A DNA stretch of 64,000 nt from a virus. The DNA lies in IMG/VR virus record IMGVR_UViG_3300036859_000864, positions 32,001-96,000 of that record. One strand, written 5' to 3'. The translations under genes and the position numbers were made by a program. Shown piece by piece: positions 8,045 to 40,765 of the stretch (position 1 is the stretch's first letter; every line of letters begins with the position of its first letter). A model generated the notes under the pieces. The model was not told the origin of the DNA. It ran no database searches and saw nothing but the letters and a program-made list of their open reading frames with translations.

Positions 8045-8770
8045 CTACGTAACAGGCTTCACCGCAGTAGAACCCATCGTCGTTGAGTCTTGAGTTGCGC
8101 ATAGTTCCTCTTTCGTTCGGTTTCTTTCGAATTCGCGGAATTGACGTAGGGCTGCTAGTTCGACCGGAGATCGCGGATCAGAGCCGCCAGCTCGTGCCAC
8201 CAGATGTTCTGCGGCGGCCGGTTCTGAAACACCGTCGCGAGCTTCGGGTACTTCGACCATACGATCGTTTCCTTCAGGTGCCGCGCCGCTTCCGTCTTCG
8301 CCGCTTCCTCCGCGTCTTTCATCTTTCTCGACCTCCGGATTGTAGATTGCGAAGCGCCGCCGCTGCTGCCGGTACGTCAGCGAGCGGAAGCGCTCGTTGT
8401 CTTCACGGCACGCATCGTCGAGCGTGTCGATGTTGTCGAGTAGAGCCCACAGCTCATCGCGCTGCTTGCAAATCTCGTTGTATGTGACCTCGGCCCGAGA
8501 CGGGGTAGGCTGTTTTAGCGAAGGAGGCACCAACGTCGAACGACGCTTCAGACAATCGGCGACGTCATCCGCCATTGCTTCGATGCCGGCGTTGAAGCCA
8601 TTTCGGTAGGCGATACGGGTAGCCTCGACACCGGCGACGGTCATCTGCGCTTTCTCACGCTCGAACTCCGCGGTGACACGATCGAACTCGCTCTTCATCG
8701 AGAGACGTTCGGCCTCGAGCGCGCGGGCGACGGCGGCGTCGCGTTCTTCTTTCAGATCTCGGTATCTCAT
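8045..8770 (-). CDS. coiled-coil hypothetical protein
   Basis: ATG 8770 is coupled; the 3' part overlaps a nested ORF at 8155-8322. Confidence 0.5.
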   Translation of the reverse strand: MRYRDLKEERDAAVARALEAERLSMKSEFDRVTAEFEREKAQMTVAGVEATRIAYRNGFNAGIEAMADDVADCLKRRSTLVPPSLKQPTPSRAEVTYNEICKQRDELWALLDNIDTLDDACREDNERFRSLTYRQQRRRFAIYNPEVEKDERRGGSGEDGSGAAPEGNDRMVEVPEARDGVSEPAAAEHLVARAGGSDPRSPVELAALRQFREFERNRTKEELCATQDSTTMGSTAVKPVT

Positions 8771-33472: not shown

Positions 33473-34167
33473 ACGGCTGGAACGGAGAGCGAGCTCATCG
33501 TCTCGAGGAACCGTTGCCCCTCACGAATCACGTGCTCGGCGAGCACCGGATGAATGACGGACTTCCCACTCGAGGCCGATACCGGCTGCGTGCGAAAATA
33601 CGTGTCGAGGCGTGTGCCGGCCTTGAGACCGAGATTGATGTAGTCCTGCGTGAGCGCGTGGCATCCGCCTTTCAGATTGTAGAATTCGCTGACGATCCCT
33701 TGGGCGTCGGCGACGAGAGAGGTCGCAGAAGGATCGAGGAGATGCGCGGCGAACTCGGCGTGCTCACGCATGAACGTGATGTTCTGACAGTACGTGAGCT
33801 CGGCCGGAAGGCCGCCCTCCCAAACACGCGCGACGAAGTAGATGAGCTCACGCAGCGTGTGATCGATGAACAACGGGAAGAGCCATCCCATCCACTTGCC
33901 GGATTTTTGGAGATCGAGCACTTCTTGCGTGAAGGAGGCCAGGTTCTTCGTAGGCTCCGAAACGATCGCCTTCGCCGCGTCGAGACCTTGCGACTTCGTG
34001 AGCCACGCCCGTGCGTGCTCCCAGTTCTCGTGGAGCGCAGCGGCTCGAGTCTTGTACGGTTCGACCTCCAATCCGAGGTTCAAGAACAGCGCGTGCTCGG
34101 AGAGCTGGCGCGACCAAAATATGATGTCTCCTAGCGGATCCAATGACGGCATGGGTCTCCTACTCAA
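33469..34167 (-). CDS. DUF2935 domain protein
   Basis: FWSRQLSEHALFL...FIDHTLRE...MREHAEF..HLLDP...SVIHPVLAEHVIREG, a duplicated EH/HxxRE helical unit. Confidence 0.8.
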   Translation of the reverse strand: MSRRPMPSLDPLGDIIFWSRQLSEHALFLNLGLEVEPYKTRAAALHENWEHARAWLTKSQGLDAAKAIVSEPTKNLASFTQEVLDLQKSGKWMGWLFPLFIDHTLRELIYFVARVWEGGLPAELTYCQNITFMREHAEFAAHLLDPSATSLVADAQGIVSEFYNLKGGCHALTQDYINLGLKAGTRLDTYFRTQPVSASSGKSVIHPVLAEHVIREGQRFLETMSSLSVPAV

Positions 34168-34528
34168 GCCCGACCACGACGATGGCCGGGAACTCTGTCG
34201 CCTTCAAGTTGTAGAGCGCGACGAAGCGGTGGGCCCCCTCGATGATGAAGGGCCCCTTCTCGTCGACGCCGATGATCAGCGGGTTGATCTCTCGAGATTC
34301 TTCGATCGCGCCAGAGAGCCGCTCGCTTCGCGCGAAGTCGTCGGCGGCGTAGAACACGGATCTCGGGCCGCCGAAGTCGGACATCGGTACGACGCGCACA
34401 CCGGGGAGCGTTTCCGACTCGGCCATGTACCCGTCGATCGAGCTGAGGTTCGGTACGTGATCTCGAACCGTCAGGCCGCCGACGACGTCGCCGGCGACCG
34501 GGTACCGCGCGCTTGTGCTCGCGATCAG
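34160..34528 (-). CDS. ParB/Srx-like domain; probably the frameshifted C-terminal module of the upstream protein
   Basis: LSGAIEESREINPLII...FIIEGAHRFVAL; the frame stays open and coding-like upstream of ATG 34426 to ~34582 with no ATG/GTG/TTG. Confidence 0.65.
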   Translation of the reverse strand: MIASTSARYPVAGDVVGGLTVRDHVPNLSSIDGYMAESETLPGVRVVPMSDFGGPRSVFYAADDFARSERLSGAIEESREINPLIIGVDEKGPFIIEGAHRFVALYNLKATEFPAIVVVGLE

Positions 34529-35883
34529 GCCCTCGAGCGACGAGTCGGCGAGCGCGAGTGGCGCCGCGCCGACCCTGCGGCTTTTGGGTGGCGACGACTC
34601 GACTCGTGCACGCCGGTACCGTTCCTAGCCGCTGCGACGCGCTCGGCGATCTCTCGGTCGCGGGCGCGTGTGAAGTTGCCTGTCCAGGCCGCCCAAGGGC
34701 GCCCCTGAGGCTTGAAGATGTCTACTTGCAACACCGAGTTGCCGGGCTCCCCGGGATGGTGGACGACCCAAGTTTCGGTCGATGCGTTCAACGTCTTGCT
34801 GGGAACGCCAACCCTCAATCGTCGCGCCTCCAAGCCGCCGTCGATGGTGAGCGTCGTCGGTCCGGAGGCGGGCGCGCCACGACGCGCTTCGCTCGCATGT
34901 GACGCAACGTCAGGCACGATTTTCACAGTGTACCCGCGTCCGGTCAGTTCGACTGCGATCTTGTCCGCTTTCTCGCGCGGGTACGATCGACGGTTCAGCC
35001 ATCGGATCGGTTGGCCGGTGTCGACGTTGATGATCTTGAACAATGATCCTCTACGAGGCGCAGCGACCACACCTCGACGCGCTTCGCCGACGCCCCCGCC
35101 GCGCATCTCCTGTTTGATCTGCAAGAGCTCGTCCGCGAGCCAATCGCGCGTCTTCGGATCTTGCAAGGCGCCTTTGAAACCGATCCAAAACTCACGCACC
35201 GTCTCGCGTCCGCCTGTCGCCGTCCCGGGCCCGAAAACGCCCCCAGCCAGATCGAGGATGTCGTTATCGCCGAGGCCCCGCTCCGTGTCCCACACGAGCT
35301 GTTGAAGCATGTTTTTCGCGATCACCGTCGCGTCTGACTTCGTCTCGAGCGGGAGCATCTGAGACGGATCCGCGCGTTCTGCTTCGAGCATCTGCTCGCG
35401 GACCCAGTCCATGAAGTATCCGCCTTGGAGTTGATCGTTGGCGTACTGCTCACCGGCGGCTTCGGCGTTGGGGGCGTCGCCCGTCTCACGTGCGGTCGGA
35501 ACTCTACGTTTGATCGGCACAGTCGACTCGCCGTAGTAGCGAAACGTCTTTCGCCCCCCACCGATATCCACTTCGACGTTACGGTATCCGCGTTGGTCGC
35601 TATCGGACACAGAGACTACGGTAGCTTCTCCGGATTTGTCGTAGATGACGTCTCCGACGCGAAGATCATCCACGTAAATATGCTGATCTCGGCGGCGATC
35701 TCTCTTCGCGTTTTCTCGTGTTGTCTTTCGAGTCATCGTGCTCTCCTTCTCGTGTCCTTGGTAGCCGTGTGAGTAGGCCGCCCGTCCTTGCTTCTCGGCC
35801 TTCTGGCGTGCGCCGGGGCCGCAGTAAACCTTCCCGTGGGAGCCCCACTGGTAGCAACCGCGGCCTCTAGAGTGGACGGGCAT
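34525..35883 (-). CDS. modular polyprotein-like protein (~5 small domains, x-x-E-ARR linkers)
   Basis: N-terminal MPVH...YQWGSHGKVYCG module; linkers TARE, GVGEARRGVVAAPRR, HASEARRGAP, GVHESSRR. Confidence 0.75.
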   Translation of the reverse strand: MPVHSRGRGCYQWGSHGKVYCGPGARQKAEKQGRAAYSHGYQGHEKESTMTRKTTRENAKRDRRRDQHIYVDDLRVGDVIYDKSGEATVVSVSDSDQRGYRNVEVDIGGGRKTFRYYGESTVPIKRRVPTARETGDAPNAEAAGEQYANDQLQGGYFMDWVREQMLEAERADPSQMLPLETKSDATVIAKNMLQQLVWDTERGLGDNDILDLAGGVFGPGTATGGRETVREFWIGFKGALQDPKTRDWLADELLQIKQEMRGGGVGEARRGVVAAPRRGSLFKIINVDTGQPIRWLNRRSYPREKADKIAVELTGRGYTVKIVPDVASHASEARRGAPASGPTTLTIDGGLEARRLRVGVPSKTLNASTETWVVHHPGEPGNSVLQVDIFKPQGRPWAAWTGNFTRARDREIAERVAAARNGTGVHESSRRHPKAAGSARRHSRSPTRRSRA

Positions 35884-35887
35884 AGTC

Positions 35888-37024
35888 CTACCGTCTTCGT
35901 GTCGATCGTCGAGCGTTCGGATTGTGCGCGCTGCGCGTCGGGCGCGGTGCCTCGTCCATGCGCGCGCCTTTGATGCGCGAGCCGCGCGGGTAAAAACCCG
36001 CGTTCTTGCCGCGGGCGAGGTCGGTCTGCGCCCGCTCGATTGTCGGAGCCGTGATGTGCGAGATCACCCGACCGTCTGGGTTCACGACCTCGAACTGTTT
36101 CCCGTGCCCCGATTCGCGCGCTCTAGGAGGCGCCTGACGGCCGCCGGAGGGCACGAAACGAACGACCCCCCGAACTCGCTCGGCCTCGGTCTTCGCGTCC
36201 CCGTAGCTCTTGAACGGGCCGGCGATGACGCGGTTGTGGTTGTCGAGGGCCTCGTAGTCTCGGACGGCATGGCGCCGAGGGGCTCCTCGCCGGGCTTCGG
36301 TGTCTCCAGGGAGGTACATGGCGTTCCGAGGAAGCTGGGCGATGATGCTGCGCGCACCAGGCCCCTGCGCGTGCCAGTAGCCTTCTTTTTGCCAGACGGT
36401 GGCCACGTAGTATCCGTTGTCCGGACACGGGAAGTAGATCCGCGTGTTGGCACCGGCGCCCGATACATGCGTGGCGCCGTCGACGGTGGCCGCATGCTCG
36501 ATGAGATCTTGGAGCGTGCCGAAGTCAGAGACACGGTGAGTACGCGACGCTGAACGGCGCGGGGCTGCGACGACGCCACGGCGCCGACTCTCGCCCACGT
36601 GCGCGTCCAGAGGCGACCCGTAGATGAGTGTCTCACCGTCCTCGTCCGGATCGCCGACGTACAGATCGAACTCGCCGTACTCGTGGGCGCCGTCTGTCAG
36701 CTTGGTCGCGTCCGGCTCGGGCCAGTCGCCGTCCCAAAAGCCGGCGCCGGCGCCGTTGCGCGTCAGCCAGAAGTCATGACCGGCTAGCTCGAGGTTGCCT
36801 CCGATGAGCTCTCCGAAACGCTCTTGGAAGGAAGCACAGTCGGCGATCATCTTGTCGCGTGTCGCGTCGTCGATGTCTCCGACGTCGTAGTTCTTGTCGA
36901 GCGGCTCGCCCCCCTGATCGTCCGAGTTGTCCGAGCTCGCCCAGAGGGCCGTTTCGAAGTACGCGCGGGTGAAAGAATCCATGCGCTGGGGCGCACGGGC
37001 GGTGTGTCGTCTGCGAGCGGCCAT
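35888..37024 (-). CDS. modular polyprotein-like protein (acidic HDFWLTRNG domain plus further modules)
   Basis: AGHDFWLTRNGAGAGFWDGDW domain; linkers HVGESRRRGVVAAPRR, DTEARRGAPRR, RARESG, RMDEAPR; Arg-rich termini. Confidence 0.8.
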   Translation of the reverse strand: MAARRRHTARAPQRMDSFTRAYFETALWASSDNSDDQGGEPLDKNYDVGDIDDATRDKMIADCASFQERFGELIGGNLELAGHDFWLTRNGAGAGFWDGDWPEPDATKLTDGAHEYGEFDLYVGDPDEDGETLIYGSPLDAHVGESRRRGVVAAPRRSASRTHRVSDFGTLQDLIEHAATVDGATHVSGAGANTRIYFPCPDNGYYVATVWQKEGYWHAQGPGARSIIAQLPRNAMYLPGDTEARRGAPRRHAVRDYEALDNHNRVIAGPFKSYGDAKTEAERVRGVVRFVPSGGRQAPPRARESGHGKQFEVVNPDGRVISHITAPTIERAQTDLARGKNAGFYPRGSRIKGARMDEAPRPTRSAHNPNARRSTRRR

Positions 37025-37689
37025 TAGCGTCTCCTCTTGGAGGTTCTGAGCGCAGTTTTCCTACGCGCGATGCGCTTGCTTCGTTGCGCGTCGGTTTGGG
37101 TCAACCGATCGATGTACGACTTGGCGACGATGATCGCCTTCGTTTCAGTGCCGCCGTATCCGACCTGTTCGGCTTCGACGCCGGTAGCTCCGTTTTCGGA
37201 TTCGTACGGGCTGTAGACGACGGCGGCGAAGTACCCCTTCTCGCCCTGATGGGGGCGTTCTTTGGGAGGTACTGGATCGTGATAGACCTCGAATTTGATA
37301 CCCTTGTACTCACCCGTGTGTTGAAGCGATGCCTTCGGACCGAGCGCGCCGGTGACGAGCGTCGGAAGACTGGGGGCTTCCTCCTCTTCTTCGCTCATCA
37401 AACCGCGAACGAGCTCCTCGACATCTTGCTTGTCTTGGATGGCGGCGATCATGCGTCCGAGCTGGTCGAGTTCGTGCCACCCGATGCCCCCCAAAGGCTC
37501 GAAGCCCATGTCCTCGAGCTCCTCGCCGCCGGGCACGCTTGCGAGAAGTCGGAACACCGTCGTCGGGTAGTCGTTCGGACCGTGGTCGTAGTTCGGGAGC
37601 CACGACCTGAGCTCCGCGATCATGTCGGCGATCGGGGGGCGGGGTTTCGAGGTGTTCGCGTGCATTCTTCTTCGGGTTGCCATGGTCAT
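37024..37689 (-). CDS. two-domain protein with Arg-rich termini
   Basis: MATRRR...LMSEEEEE...TSKRRR; ATG 37689 is coupled. Confidence 0.7.
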   Translation of the reverse strand: MTMATRRRMHANTSKPRPPIADMIAELRSWLPNYDHGPNDYPTTVFRLLASVPGGEELEDMGFEPLGGIGWHELDQLGRMIAAIQDKQDVEELVRGLMSEEEEEAPSLPTLVTGALGPKASLQHTGEYKGIKFEVYHDPVPPKERPHQGEKGYFAAVVYSPYESENGATGVEAEQVGYGGTETKAIIVAKSYIDRLTQTDAQRSKRIARRKTALRTSKRRR

Positions 37690-39227
37690 CGTCTCCTTCG
37701 CGGGCTGCGCCGCTCTTGCATTCCGTCTTCGGGCCTCGAGCTCCACACGAGTTCACCGTCGCGTGTGATTACCGTCACGTAGTCCCCTTCGAACGTCGGG
37801 TCTCGGAGCAACTTCTGCGCGGCGCGGATTGCTGCTTGCTCATCGTTCAACGAGAACGTTTCGCCACCACCGCCGCCCAAACCTCCGACGATGGTTCCGT
37901 CGCTGTACGCCCCCTGCACGACGTAGTCGCCATCGTCGACATGGGCGTTCGAATCTTTCTTACCCCAAATGGAGGCGTAACCGCTCGTTGAGCTCGCGAT
38001 CTCATCGTTGCGGTCTTTCGGCCACCAGTCGATGCCCTGAGCGGCTTCCTTGACCGTTTCGATCGGCAACTCCATATCGTGCGCTACGGCACGGATGGCG
38101 GAGTCGGGGCTGACGTGTTCTTCGGTGGTCGGTACCCTACCCCCGAGATCGGTCAGCTCGTAGCCGTCCTTCTCGAGGTCGGCCTCTACGCCGGACTCGG
38201 TTCGCTCGCTCTCCAGATCACCGTTGACGGCCACGGCGTCTCCGAACGAAGCGACACCGACGAGCGAATCTGAATCGAAGCCATCTCGAGCGGCGTCGTC
38301 CGCGTGCTGATCGCCGATCGTGCTCCACGTCTGCGCAGCGCCGATGTCGGCCATTTCCTCGACTTTCTTTTCGAGGTTGCTTCGGATGTCGCTGTACCCT
38401 AGGACGTCGTCCTTGAACGATTCGTCTTCGTCTGCGAGGTACTCGCGGAGTGTTGCGGTCGCGCCGCTCGACCACTTCACTTCGTGATCGGGAAGATCTC
38501 CAGACCAGCCGGAAGGCCCCTCGTCGACACCAGTGCCGTAGTCCATGAGCGCGCTCGCGATCGTGAGCGCGCGCTGAGTTGGTGTGAGATCCTCGAGCTG
38601 GTTGTGATCCATCCCGATGAAGCTCATGACGTTCGAGATGTTCTCCTTGTTCGTGAGATCGTCGAGATCGTAGTACGCCTCGCGGGTCCAAAACGGGAAG
38701 CCGGCTTCGGCCGCTTCCGTGTCGCCGACGTACTCACGCACCGGTTGGATCTTGAAGAGCTCGAGGGCTCTGCCGTCGCTCTTGGCGATGGTGCCGCCGT
38801 GCGCACCGGGATCCATGTCGCCGTCGATCTGCTCCCACATCGGCATGTCCGGGATCTGAATTTCCAGCTTCCCGGGGATGTCAGGGAAGCCCGGCAGGCT
38901 CGGTTGGTGGCGGCTCCTCACCCTCCGTCCTTTTCCACGCTCGTGCATCTCCCCGCCGCTCGCCGCACCCTCGTCCGGGCGCGAGAACCGCTCGAGGTGC
39001 CCCGCGTCGGCCGTGAACGGATCGGCCGTCCTCGAGCGCCCGCGTCCCGTCGAGCCCGGAGGCCAGATGCGGATCGAGCGCGCCTTGGCCTCGTAGCTGT
39101 ACGGCGTGCCGCTTCCGGGGCGCAGCATGGTCGGCCGTTGATCCATCGGTGCCTGGTAGTAGAGCGGGCCTCCCGTGCGCGCGTACGCGAGAACTTCAGG
39201 CCACGACTTGAAGGCTACAAGGTTCAT
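37686..39227 (-). CDS. large acidic modular protein
   Basis: Linkers EMHERGKGRR and GMQERRSPRRRR; D/E-rich core. Confidence 0.75.
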   Translation of the reverse strand: MNLVAFKSWPEVLAYARTGGPLYYQAPMDQRPTMLRPGSGTPYSYEAKARSIRIWPPGSTGRGRSRTADPFTADAGHLERFSRPDEGAASGGEMHERGKGRRVRSRHQPSLPGFPDIPGKLEIQIPDMPMWEQIDGDMDPGAHGGTIAKSDGRALELFKIQPVREYVGDTEAAEAGFPFWTREAYYDLDDLTNKENISNVMSFIGMDHNQLEDLTPTQRALTIASALMDYGTGVDEGPSGWSGDLPDHEVKWSSGATATLREYLADEDESFKDDVLGYSDIRSNLEKKVEEMADIGAAQTWSTIGDQHADDAARDGFDSDSLVGVASFGDAVAVNGDLESERTESGVEADLEKDGYELTDLGGRVPTTEEHVSPDSAIRAVAHDMELPIETVKEAAQGIDWWPKDRNDEIASSTSGYASIWGKKDSNAHVDDGDYVVQGAYSDGTIVGGLGGGGGETFSLNDEQAAIRAAQKLLRDPTFEGDYVTVITRDGELVWSSRPEDGMQERRSPRRRR

Positions 39228-39952
39228 CAGTTGTCTCTCCAGTAAACGAACCCGGACGGGGTCGTGTAGTAGTTGCTGTCGTAGCGCGCGAGGAAGTGCT
39301 CGGCGCCGTCTGTGTCGACGGCCTCCTCGGCCGCCGCTTCGATGTCGATGCCGGCGATCTCGATGGCCTTCGCGGCGGCCTCGTCACCGTAGATCTCTTC
39401 GAGATACTCGAGCGGGTCGTTGAGACGCTCTTCGGCGATCTTCGAGGCGACGTCGTCGATGTAGTCCTCGGGGTCGGGCATCTCGCCCTCGCTGTCTTCC
39501 TCGGGGATGCTGTCGAGGTAGCGCTCCGCCGTCTGCCAGAATTGACGGCTGGACATCTCGCGAAGATCGTCCTCCGCCATACTCTGCACGTCAGACTTGA
39601 GCTCTCGACGCAAGCGATCCTTGTCGATGTGGTTCTCGATGAAGTCCTTGTTGAAGTTCCCGGGCTCTTCTTCGAGATCTTGCGTGACAACTTCGATGGC
39701 CAGCTCGTACATCTTGTCGTGACTTTCCACGACATGCCATTCCTTGCCGCCCGTACGATCGCCTCGAAAATAAATTCGGTAGGCGGTGCCGTCGAAATCT
39801 CCGAAACCTGTAAGCTGAGTGCTCTCTTCGATTTTCAAATCGTACGGGTCGATGTCAAGGTGCTTCGCCACCTCGATGAGCACCGCGTCTTGATCGTCGA
39901 AGTCGACCTTGCGCGGGCGCCGCTTCGCTGCCTTTTTCTTTCGGGTAGCCAT
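39227..39952 (-). CDS. highly acidic protein, putative ArdA-like DNA mimic
   Basis: Basic N-tail MATRKKKAAKRRPRK followed by a D/E-rich body ending IDIEAAAEEAVDTDGAEHFLARYD; start trimmed to 39952. Confidence 0.5.
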   Translation of the reverse strand: MATRKKKAAKRRPRKVDFDDQDAVLIEVAKHLDIDPYDLKIEESTQLTGFGDFDGTAYRIYFRGDRTGGKEWHVVESHDKMYELAIEVVTQDLEEEPGNFNKDFIENHIDKDRLRRELKSDVQSMAEDDLREMSSRQFWQTAERYLDSIPEEDSEGEMPDPEDYIDDVASKIAEERLNDPLEYLEEIYGDEAAAKAIEIAGIDIEAAAEEAVDTDGAEHFLARYDSNYYTTPSGFVYWRDN

Positions 39953-39953
39953 C

Positions 39954-40382
39954 TCAGTCGTCCTCCTCTTCGAACTCGTCTTCGTCTTCATCGTCGTCAT
40001 CGTCATCCTCATCGTCGTCGTCGACGTCCTCGAACTCAGATTCGATTTCCTTCCACGCCGCTTCGGCTTTCGTCTTGCCGTCGAATCCGGTGAACCAGTC
40101 GGCCTCAACGATGCCATCTTCACGTTCGCAGAGAATCACCACCGAGGTGTCATCGAGCAGAGCGCCCTCCGCGCCGGTGAGCTGATCCTTCTCCTCTTTC
40201 GCGATCTCGTTGATGCGATCGACGACGTCAGGAGTGATTTCTACGAAACCGTACCAGCCGTCACCTTCGGAGCCTTCCTCCCGATCGGCGCCGCCATCGA
40301 GCGTCAACTCGTAGACGTAGCTGTCGATGATTTTGATGAACTTGCCGGGCCCGTACGAACGAATTCCTGTTTTGATCGGCAT
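39954..40382 (-). CDS. highly acidic protein with poly-D/E tail
   Basis: GPGKF...; C-terminus is almost entirely D/E. Confidence 0.65.
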   Translation of the reverse strand: MPIKTGIRSYGPGKFIKIIDSYVYELTLDGGADREEGSEGDGWYGFVEITPDVVDRINEIAKEEKDQLTGAEGALLDDTSVVILCEREDGIVEADWFTGFDGKTKAEAAWKEIESEFEDVDDDDEDDDDDDEDEDEFEEEDD

Positions 40383-40765
40383 CACTTTCTCCATTCGATC
40401 CAAGCTCGATCGATCTCGAGCGGTAACTGTTCGGTGGATACGCCCACCGTCTTGAGAACTCCCCGTAGAACGCCCCACTCTTGATCGATGATTTCGTCAA
40501 GATACTCGTCTTCCGAGTCGCTCTCGATAGCCCCTACGCCGGCGCTCGTGAGCGTCTGAGGGACTCCTTCGATGGCAACCTCGGCCTCGGCGTAGACGCG
40601 CATGAAGTCGAACTCATCGCGCTCGTAGGCGGCAAGGCCGTCCTCGTTCAAGTACGAGGTGTCCGGGCTCGAGTCCGGCGTGAAGATCACGCGCACGGCG
40701 CGCAGCTCCGCACGTGGCCTGCGTGAGGCAGCCTCGACGACGCGGCGTCGCGGGGGAGAGCTCAT
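40382..40765 (-). CDS. acidic hypothetical protein with Arg-rich N-terminus
   Basis: MSSPPRRRVVEAASRR...PDTSYL...GAIESDS. Confidence 0.65.
   Translation of the reverse strand: MSSPPRRRVVEAASRRPRAELRAVRVIFTPDSSPDTSYLNEDGLAAYERDEFDFMRVYAEAEVAIEGVPQTLTSAGVGAIESDSEDEYLDEIIDQEWGVLRGVLKTVGVSTEQLPLEIDRAWIEWRK

Follow-up and report, generated by a model that had tools for sequence, protein, structure and literature searches.

What do the arginine-rich segments do that separate and cap unrelated small protein domains in an operon of a never-cultured virus, and why do most of them open with a glutamate? The question is raised by IMG/VR record IMGVR_UViG_3300036859_000864, which has 111,461 bp and a terminal overlap of 127 bp, being thus circular or terminally repeated. 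The stretch of 64,000 nucleotides formed by its bases 32,001-96,000 is called the window below, and the operon is given in window coordinates. It consists of seven tightly coupled minus-strand genes, A to G, which run from 40765 down to 34525 and are followed by a ParB-like remnant (34426-34160). The original prediction had seen in them strings of mostly acidic domains joined by Arg-rich linkers, which would load the proteins onto packaged DNA and be cut after Glu, in the manner of the prohead proteases of T4 and phiKZ, to free effectors injected with the genome. The explanation favoured here, tentatively, is that the operon is a cassette of cargo genes, quick to evolve, in a large bacterial virus that has a membrane and no tail.

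Linker Motif and Its Occurrence in the Core Protein

The operon linkers read [VAGS]-x-E-[AS]-R-R. In a crude proteome of ~31,000 residues, E-[AS]-R-R occurs seven times, six of them in the operon, which accounts for 6.7% of the residues (binomial probability 6e-7, post hoc). As this motif had been chosen after inspection, it was retested on three other complete genomes of the clade, G007, G003 and G001. Five of the ten occurrences in G007 lay in five consecutive operon genes and three more in the Arg-rich core protein described below (4e-4), while in G003 three of seven lay in the operon and one in the core protein (7e-3). The predicted concentration of the motif in the locus was thus found in this genome, with enrichment also in two of the three others.

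The operon proteins of ten genomes, 65 in all, contain 97 basic stretches. Glu rather than Asp precedes 71 of them (background 53%, p 5e-5), and the first residue is Ala, Ser or Thr in 39 of these 71 (background 21-23%, p 2e-10), both p values being optimistic since the rows include homologous sites. Glu also preceded 22 of the 27 basic C-terminal tails. The codons differ at all positions of the motif and the Arg codons are mostly CGN; the constraint therefore acts on the peptide and is not that of a DNA repeat, which bears out the claim of conservation at the protein level.

The same unit recurs in a morphogenesis module located ~30 kb away, which encodes a LysM membrane protein, a transglutaminase-like protein of 225 residues, the Arg-rich core protein and a coat protein of 441 residues. 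The transglutaminase-like/core/coat block occupies L003:5816-9777 (contig 99,816-103,777, past the end of the window), and 26 of the 31 related IMG/VR loci have its three genes side by side in the same order. The core protein has C-terminal membrane helices and a basic region of ~190 residues of R/K/A/P, with ~110-130 positive charges. In ~25 relatives, this region contains 4-23 Glu and almost no Asp (E:D ~7:1, versus 1.16:1 genome-wide); in the 204 distinct Glu contexts that they provide, position P3 is Ala or Val in 57% and P1′ is Ala, Thr or Ser in 64%. Apart from genes F and G, the string A-A-P-[RK]-R was found solely in the core protein, which has it four times, E-[AS]-R-R-R-P is present in both operon linkers and core repeats (G007, G003), and the C-terminal end of the LysM protein carries units of the V-A-P-R-R-R type. 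The unit common to linkers and core repeat is a small or hydrophobic residue, any residue, E/A/Q, A/S/T, R/P and then an Arg run. So, the motif had been expected in head proteins and is indeed common to the operon and a virion component, the core protein. Judged from its sequence, the latter would be a protamine-like, DNA-condensing protein, the repeat unit of which the Arg-rich operon linkers match.

The core protein of G007 (L125-L126, contig 84,856-88,242) has 1,128 residues, with about six tandem repeats of 17-18 residues followed by long His/Pro/Ala-rich regions. Its repeats have the form A-R-E-T-x-x-V-Q-A-R-R-R-P-R/K, each opened by a single Glu.

Concerning the distribution of the tags, the N-terminal domain of gene F belongs to phrog_1915 (E 6e-17), and this domain is common as a stand-alone protein of 110-160 residues in other viral contigs. 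All 44 homologues from outside the clade end right after the domain and none of the 44 has an Arg-rich tail; within the clade, a linker always comes after the domain. The Arg-rich tags are clade-specific.

Organization of the Operon

The seven coupled genes and the linker peptides quoted in the original prediction were all found at the positions given for them. Consecutive genes overlap by 1 nt or are separated by 1-4 nt, each with a GGAG upstream that resembles a Shine-Dalgarno (SD) sequence. The sliding GC content at third codon positions stays at ~0.6-0.9, in the coding range, across every linker, so these are real multidomain open reading frames (ORFs) and not frame artefacts. The likely starts of three ORFs were revised to 40382 (174-aa ORF), 39952 (298-aa ORF) and 37683 (240-aa ORF), yielding in each case an N-terminus of the M-A-T-R-K/R type.

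Gene A (127 residues, 40382..40765), the first gene of the operon in all relatives examined, begins with a basic tag (residues 1-20, with a unit of the R-R-R-V-V-E-A-A-S-R-R type) that is followed by an acidic domain. Gene B (~142 residues from the ATG at 40382; 39954..40382) is an acidic domain without Arg tag, ending in a run of ~20 Asp/Glu. Gene C (241 residues from the ATG at 39952; 39227..39952) has an N-terminal tag of the M-A-T-R-K-K-K type and an acidic domain that is kept in five relatives. Gene D (513 residues, 37686..39227) is composed of an N-terminal domain (residues 1-90), a linker (residues 92-108, 38904..38954) with M-H-E before a basic run, a conserved acidic domain of 320 residues, a small C-terminal domain and a basic tail (37689..37727) in which M-Q-E precedes R-R-S-P-R-R-R-R. 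In gene E (~219 residues, 37024..37683), an M-A-T-R-R-R tag is followed by an acidic domain, a second domain and a basic tail.

Gene F (378 residues, 35888..37024) contains an N-terminal tag, the phrog_1915 domain, three small domains and a tail. Its first linker (residues 141-163, 36536..36604) shows the tandem units V-G-E-S-R-R-R and G-V-V-A-A-P-R-R, the second (residues 240-252, 36269..36307) reads T-E-A-R-R-G-A-P-R-R, the third (residues 295-309, 36098..36142) is of the A-R-E-S-G type, a weaker match to the motif, and in the tail (residues 355-378, 35891..35962) M-D-E stands before A-P-R and a later R-R-R. An AlphaFold model of residues 120-378, computed with an alignment of domain fragments from relatives, gave a predicted local distance difference test score (pLDDT) of ~95 for the domains 165-239 and 254-294, between which linker 2 has low pLDDT; linkers 1 and 3 fall below 50. 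Glu145, Glu243, Glu303 and Glu358 each lie within a segment of pLDDT < 50, between confident domains; a fourth small domain, covered by 2-3 sequences, is poorly supported in the model. In agreement with what had been foreseen for the motifs, the linkers are predicted to be disordered segments between folded domains.

Gene G (452 residues, 34525..35883) has several domains, two internal E-A-R-R linkers and a basic tail of 27 residues (34528..34617) where V-H-E is followed by S-S-R-R. Between the two linkers there is a cassette of ~65 residues (residues 262-337, 34873..35100) with E-A-R-R at both borders.

The acidic character attributed to the domains holds for part of the operon. Only genes A-E are clearly acidic, with 18-21% Asp+Glu, whereas the small domains of the 378- and 452-residue proteins are neutral to basic.

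Comparison of Homologous Loci

The syntenic operon was recovered from nine further viral records, making ten genomes with this one; a single-sequence scan with gene D recovered only 2 loci, and the neighbouring DUF2935 gene is accessory among the relatives and hence useless as a synteny anchor. Genes A and C and the large domain of gene D are kept across the clade. A common pool of domains is arranged differently in nearly every genome, with domains reshuffled or inserted, and genes split or fused, exactly at the linkers, just as the modular view of the proteins had anticipated. Seven different protein contexts were counted for the 'HRVADF' domain of gene F; in G007, for example, it is N-terminal in a protein of 553 residues, and in G002 it closes the gene G homologue. 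Five other genomes have the 'VRDY' domain, and in three of them it forms the C-terminal end of a protein that is homologous to gene G in its N-terminal part; both G003 and G007 have it at the end of the gene G homologue, and in G004 it is duplicated in tandem. In G006, it is the gene F homologue that harbours the second domain of gene E. The gene G cassette is missing from the close relative L004, where one E-A-R-R takes its place; a domain has thus been inserted at the linker.

Some linkers can be traced to the ends of separate genes. A protein of L005 begins with M-A-T-R-K exactly at the position of the internal linker of gene D, which therefore is the N-terminal tag of a gene that was once separate. 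A fusion in G004 retains an internal M-A-S-R-R, including the Met of the downstream gene, which is the N-terminus of the G007 protein. Many internal linkers are thus the fused C-terminal tails and N-terminal tags of neighbouring, formerly separate coupled genes.

It could then be asked whether the linkers are just neutral scars of repeated fusion of coupled genes in a GC-rich genome, with their Arg partly forced by embedded ribosome-binding sites. Their match to the N- and C-termini of separate genes and the Met retained in G004 would agree with it. So would the tails of genes D and E, where the terminal AGG-AGA Arg codons (37686-37700 and 37024-37040, minus strand) are at the same time the SD of the next gene, AAGGAGA / AGAGGAGA, so that this terminal Arg run is partly constrained by translational coupling. 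Nevertheless, scars would not be expected to conserve a peptide while its codons vary and most of its Arg codons are CGN, nor to be enriched for one motif in independent genomes, nor to share that motif with the core protein. The tag is moreover absent from the 44 outside homologues, and internal linkers have no downstream start codon to serve. Neutral scars are thus very unlikely as an explanation.

G004 has spike-like virion genes immediately ahead of the operon and in the same orientation. The two spike-like proteins (L098, reverse complement 124-2771) have a common N-terminal peptide, I-G-R-G-R-Y-A-x-E-x-Y-P.

The ParB-like ORF after gene G (88 residues, 34160..34426, minus strand) has weak PHROG matches and corresponds to the tail of a gene 334 residues long in L004. 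Its frame is open and homologous to L004 for ~55 codons 5′ of its ATG (34426-34590), a region shared with the last codons of gene G. Gene G contains a C-CCA-AAA heptamer (~34582-34588) from which a -1 shift would lead into the ParB-like frame via the linker-like S-R-R-V-G-A-A-P; an interrupted 14-bp hairpin starts 6 nt 3′ of it, but does not exceed shuffled sequence in stability (z = 0). The overlap could represent a programmed frameshift, an internal start or a deletion scar.

Nature of the Domains

None of 17 operon proteins (7 from this genome and 10 from relatives) matched a Pfam-A family, and their PHROG matches were only to families of unknown function (phrog_1915, phrog_2922 and phrog_25342). 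No domain matched a known effector, anti-defence or anti-restriction family in Pfam, PHROG and PDB-sequence profile searches. The profiles of three conserved domains gave chance-level matches only against PDB sequences, and a match to the C-terminal domain of the HIV capsid protein (E 0.01) in the PDB profile search was judged spurious. Foldseek with the gene F model returned nothing at E < 0.2, and the ESM Atlas yielded for the phrog_1915 domain only 'hypothetical protein' clusters of tailed phages, the nearest labelled Uroviricota.

The strong acidity of genes A-E, with the Asp/Glu run of gene B, suggests another role. By analogy with the acidic chaperones of histones and protamines, the operon proteins could be assembly chaperones of the core protein, their acidic domains shielding the ~110-130 positive charges of its ~190-residue basic region until DNA condensation and their basic tags holding them on DNA. 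The conservation of A, C and the large domain of D throughout the clade is consistent with this. Still, the domain content varies strongly among close relatives, which fits an accessory role better than an essential one in assembly, several tagged domains are not acidic, and one of the domains is widespread as a separate protein in tailed phages, which lack a core of this kind. We consider it quite unlikely that chaperoning is the function of these proteins.

The Virus

The record is classified in IMG/VR as a complete virus with direct terminal repeats. It encodes SNF2, Dda-like and VapE helicases, a PD-(D/E)XK nuclease and a DNA polymerase A of 944 residues (L002:8712-11546, minus strand) with an N-terminal domain of the uracil-DNA-glycosylase superfamily (UDG-like). 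An ATPase of the HerA/FtsK type (326 residues, L001:14700-15680, minus strand; DUF87 with 30.9 bits versus a cut-off of 23.2 in Pfam) is likely the packaging ATPase. The major coat protein of 441 residues is jelly-roll-like in an AlphaFold model of mediocre quality (pLDDT 58), and this predicted fold is taken as a lead. No terminase, portal, HK97 capsid or tail protein was named when 40 genome proteins were searched with Pfam and 20 of these with PHROG. Because the HerA/FtsK-type ATPase and the jelly-roll-like coat were found, and neither terminase nor portal nor HK97 capsid was among the scanned proteins, the virus is most likely a large tailless one, with a membrane, and not a tailed phage with a prohead.

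The coat protein had 0 matches in 50,697 phage records, a DNA similarity search against plasmids and phages gave patches of 55-146 nt only, and in a literature search bacterial jelly-roll viruses of about 110 kb were nowhere described.

Clear relatives of the coat gene were located on two short contigs from metagenome-assembled genomes, L128 (Candidatus Binatia) and L129 (Polyangiaceae); a third match, in the Polyangiaceae-labelled contig L130, spans only 15 residues. Binatia or Polyangiaceae as host are a lead only, because the binning of viral contigs is unreliable. A tyrosine recombinase gene (L001:16912-18000, minus strand) adjoins the ATPase gene, and the virus may be temperate. Neither a scan for sigma-70 promoters and terminators nor 9-mer enrichment across intergenic DNA brought out a promoter class.

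Candidate Proteases

The search for an enzyme that could cut at the Glu junctions produced a single protease-fold candidate, the transglutaminase-like protein encoded directly upstream of the core gene (L003:5816-6493). It matches Pfam Transglut_core PF01841 (29.3 bits versus a cut-off of 23, E 1.1e-6) and belongs to a papain-like fold class; its profile found no relative in the PDB. The Cys-His-Asp triad C116, H150 and D166 is invariant or nearly so in an alignment of 26 sequences; in 19 homologues, with identities as low as 35%, it shows no exception. This enzyme may be a peptidase, and for the role considered here it would have to be specific for Glu.

The prohead protease foreseen on the contig was not encountered. 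Peptidase_S78 and Trypsin_2 had no match in the 111-kb genome, with positive controls that worked; Peptidase_S77 (PF03420) had none either, but likewise none in 14 control genomes, and the same silence of the control genomes qualifies the lack of a match for adenain (Peptidase_C5, PF00770). General PHROG scans of large proteins, run without a gp175/gp245-family profile, named no prohead protease. The idea that the operon encodes internal head proteins of a tailed phage, processed by a prohead serine protease of the T4 gp21 or phiKZ gp175 type, has in its favour the shape of the sites, as a small or hydrophobic P3, Glu at P1 and Ser/Ala at P1′ resemble published sites (PMC10052503). Besides the missing S77 and S78 matches (with the S77 control silent), it has to face a genome whose scanned proteins include no terminase, portal or HK97 capsid, which carries a HerA-type ATPase and a jelly-roll-like coat instead, and which has no relative among the 50,697 phage records. 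It is extremely improbable.

A multi-pass membrane protein of 185 residues was seen in two relatives (L005:14213-14770, and L105 minus strand, 8101-8658 of the reverse complement). Visual inspection suggests a protease of the rhomboid family, in view of its GxSG and His motifs.

Interpretation

Concerning DNA binding, packaging, cleavage, the enzyme responsible and the roles of the domains, we infer the following. The Arg-rich modules would bind DNA as the core protein does, so that the tagged domains are condensed along with the genome at assembly and travel with it into the next host. A protease of virion maturation would cut the Glu-(Ala/Ser/Thr) junction found at the start of most modules, the best candidate being the conserved transglutaminase-fold Cys-His-Asp enzyme, whose gene immediately precedes the core gene. 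The cuts would part the folded domains from short basic peptides and chop the core protein into pieces of ~17-60 residues. That the modules are core-like DNA-affinity tags for cargo, and the junction of Glu with a small residue a processing site common to cargo and core, can be proposed tentatively, as a real possibility that keeps a good deal of doubt. In its most complete form, the proposal is a plug-and-play packaging code, in which any domain flanked by the core repeat is loaded on the genome and the transglutaminase-fold protease cuts after Glu in both cargo and core, releasing a changeable cocktail; this form is rather unlikely.

Several observations weigh against packaging and cleavage. 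The neighbours of the operon are replication genes, and the morphogenesis module is ~30 kb distant. Asp precedes 26 of the 97 basic stretches, the Glu is replaced by A, Q, K or T in many core repeats, and the complete genome of G001 has 0 exact E-[AS]-R-R. Both the excess of Glu over Asp and the E-A-R-R string could instead stem from salt bridges that form helices, and the terminal Arg codons of two tails, in doubling as Shine-Dalgarno sequences, account for part of the Arg content. We know of no transglutaminase-fold enzymes acting as Glu-specific endopeptidases, and the candidate could serve in cross-linking or deamidation instead. Finally, loading acidic domains into a DNA core whose charge is neutralised would seem self-defeating.

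The position of the operon, beside the helicase and replication block and divergent from it, agrees with another reading, in which the tags localise accessory proteins to intracellular DNA (replication centres or the host nucleoid) or drive condensates, the proteins being neither cut nor packaged. The resemblance of the tags to a DNA-condensing protein would suit this equally, and the stand-alone phrog_1915 proteins of many tailed-phage contigs carry no structural PHROG annotation. What localisation leaves unexplained is the Glu plus small residue at the opening of most basic stretches and the identical punctuation of the core protein, and the G004 operon, placed directly after spike-like virion genes on the same strand, also speaks against it. 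Localisation is a somewhat unlikely alternative, although one to be reckoned with.

Returning to the tags as carriers of cargo, if they work as proposed, they amount to a simple transferable rule for placing arbitrary proteins inside a virus particle. If true, the rule would concern a particle type that has never been cultured, that of a tailless, membrane-lined virus of ~110-125 kb, would give a first view of how a protamine-like DNA core matures in such viruses, and would let sequence alone mark a large, fast-changing pool of candidate host-takeover proteins with unknown fold. Even with cleavage wrong, a clade-specific module that has been added to captured phage domains and is common to the DNA-condensing protein would make a clear case of tag targeting in a bacterial virus.

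Comparison with Known Systems

In phage T4, the internal proteins IPI-III carry capsid-targeting sequences that are removed by the prohead protease gp21. As proposed here, the likeness would lie in a short transferable terminal tag, with x-x-Glu at its end, that loads unrelated proteins into the particle, and in the delivery of this cargo with the DNA; in T4, at least one cargo counters host defence. The tag here is a core-like Arg-rich unit present at both ends of proteins and between domains, whereas that of T4 is a scaffold-binding N-terminal peptide of ~10 residues. Moreover, no tailed-phage head protein was among those scanned here and there is no S77 match (with a silent control), and the cargo is multidomain and mostly acidic.

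In phiKZ-like giant phages, ejection proteins and propeptides are cut by gp175 or, in the case of SPN3US, by gp245 (PMC10052503, PMC7411985, PMC5694885). For SPN3US gp245, A-R-E and E-124 sites have been described, with Val at P4 and Ser at P1′ (PMC10052503). In these phages many packaged accessory proteins undergo cleavage at several Glu positions, where P3 is small and P1′ is Ser, and sites of similar shape (small P3, Glu at P1, Ser/Ala at P1′) are present in the operon as what seems a likeness of pattern. The A-R-E reported as a site in SPN3US recurs in the core protein here. On the other hand, phiKZ and SPN3US are tailed jumbo phages with a serine protease of the assemblin fold, long N-terminal propeptides instead of Arg-rich linkers, and no protamine-like core.

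In adenovirus, the precursors of proteins VII and mu (pX), among others, are cut by the DNA-bound cysteine protease AVP. Adenovirus has a jelly-roll coat and condenses its genome with Arg-rich proteins, and the present virus would resemble it in both respects. There, the virion cysteine protease cuts DNA-bound precursors into short basic peptides, and here a counterpart is proposed. AVP is a Peptidase_C5 enzyme with Gly-based sites, while here a transglutaminase-fold candidate and Glu-based sites would apply. Adenovirus also belongs to another host domain and has no tagging of shuffled accessory domains, and the present genome has no adenain match (with a silent control).

Polyvalent proteins, reportedly treated by Iyer et al. 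in 2017, are those of phages and conjugative elements. In them, as in the operon, strings of unrelated small domains are present in one polypeptide of a mobile element and are reshuffled between relatives, and delivery with the DNA is suspected in both cases. The operon proteins are much shorter, and the signature domains (e.g., MuF, ArdC, methylases and LPD domains) were absent, by Pfam, from the 17 operon proteins. To our knowledge, polyvalent proteins have not been described with conserved Arg-rich linkers that are opened by Glu and recur in a core protein.

The Dar anti-restriction proteins of phage P1 are reported to be packaged in the head and injected to protect the incoming DNA (PMC12810830, PMC9024508). 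They would resemble the operon proteins as an accessory set that is packaged and injected. P1 differs in being tailed, in an ordered hierarchy of incorporation by protein-protein contacts and in having no Arg-rich tags, and no sequence similarity to the operon proteins was detected.

Considering all these systems, the operon lies outside the T4, phiKZ and adenovirus families, as virus type, candidate enzyme and tag peptide all differ. A plug-and-play code would amount to core maturation as in adenovirus combined with cargo tagging as in T4, arisen independently in giant tailless phages, which we regard as unlikely though worth stating. The system can be described as a putative virion cargo, tag-directed and possibly released by a protease, of an undescribed virus lineage.

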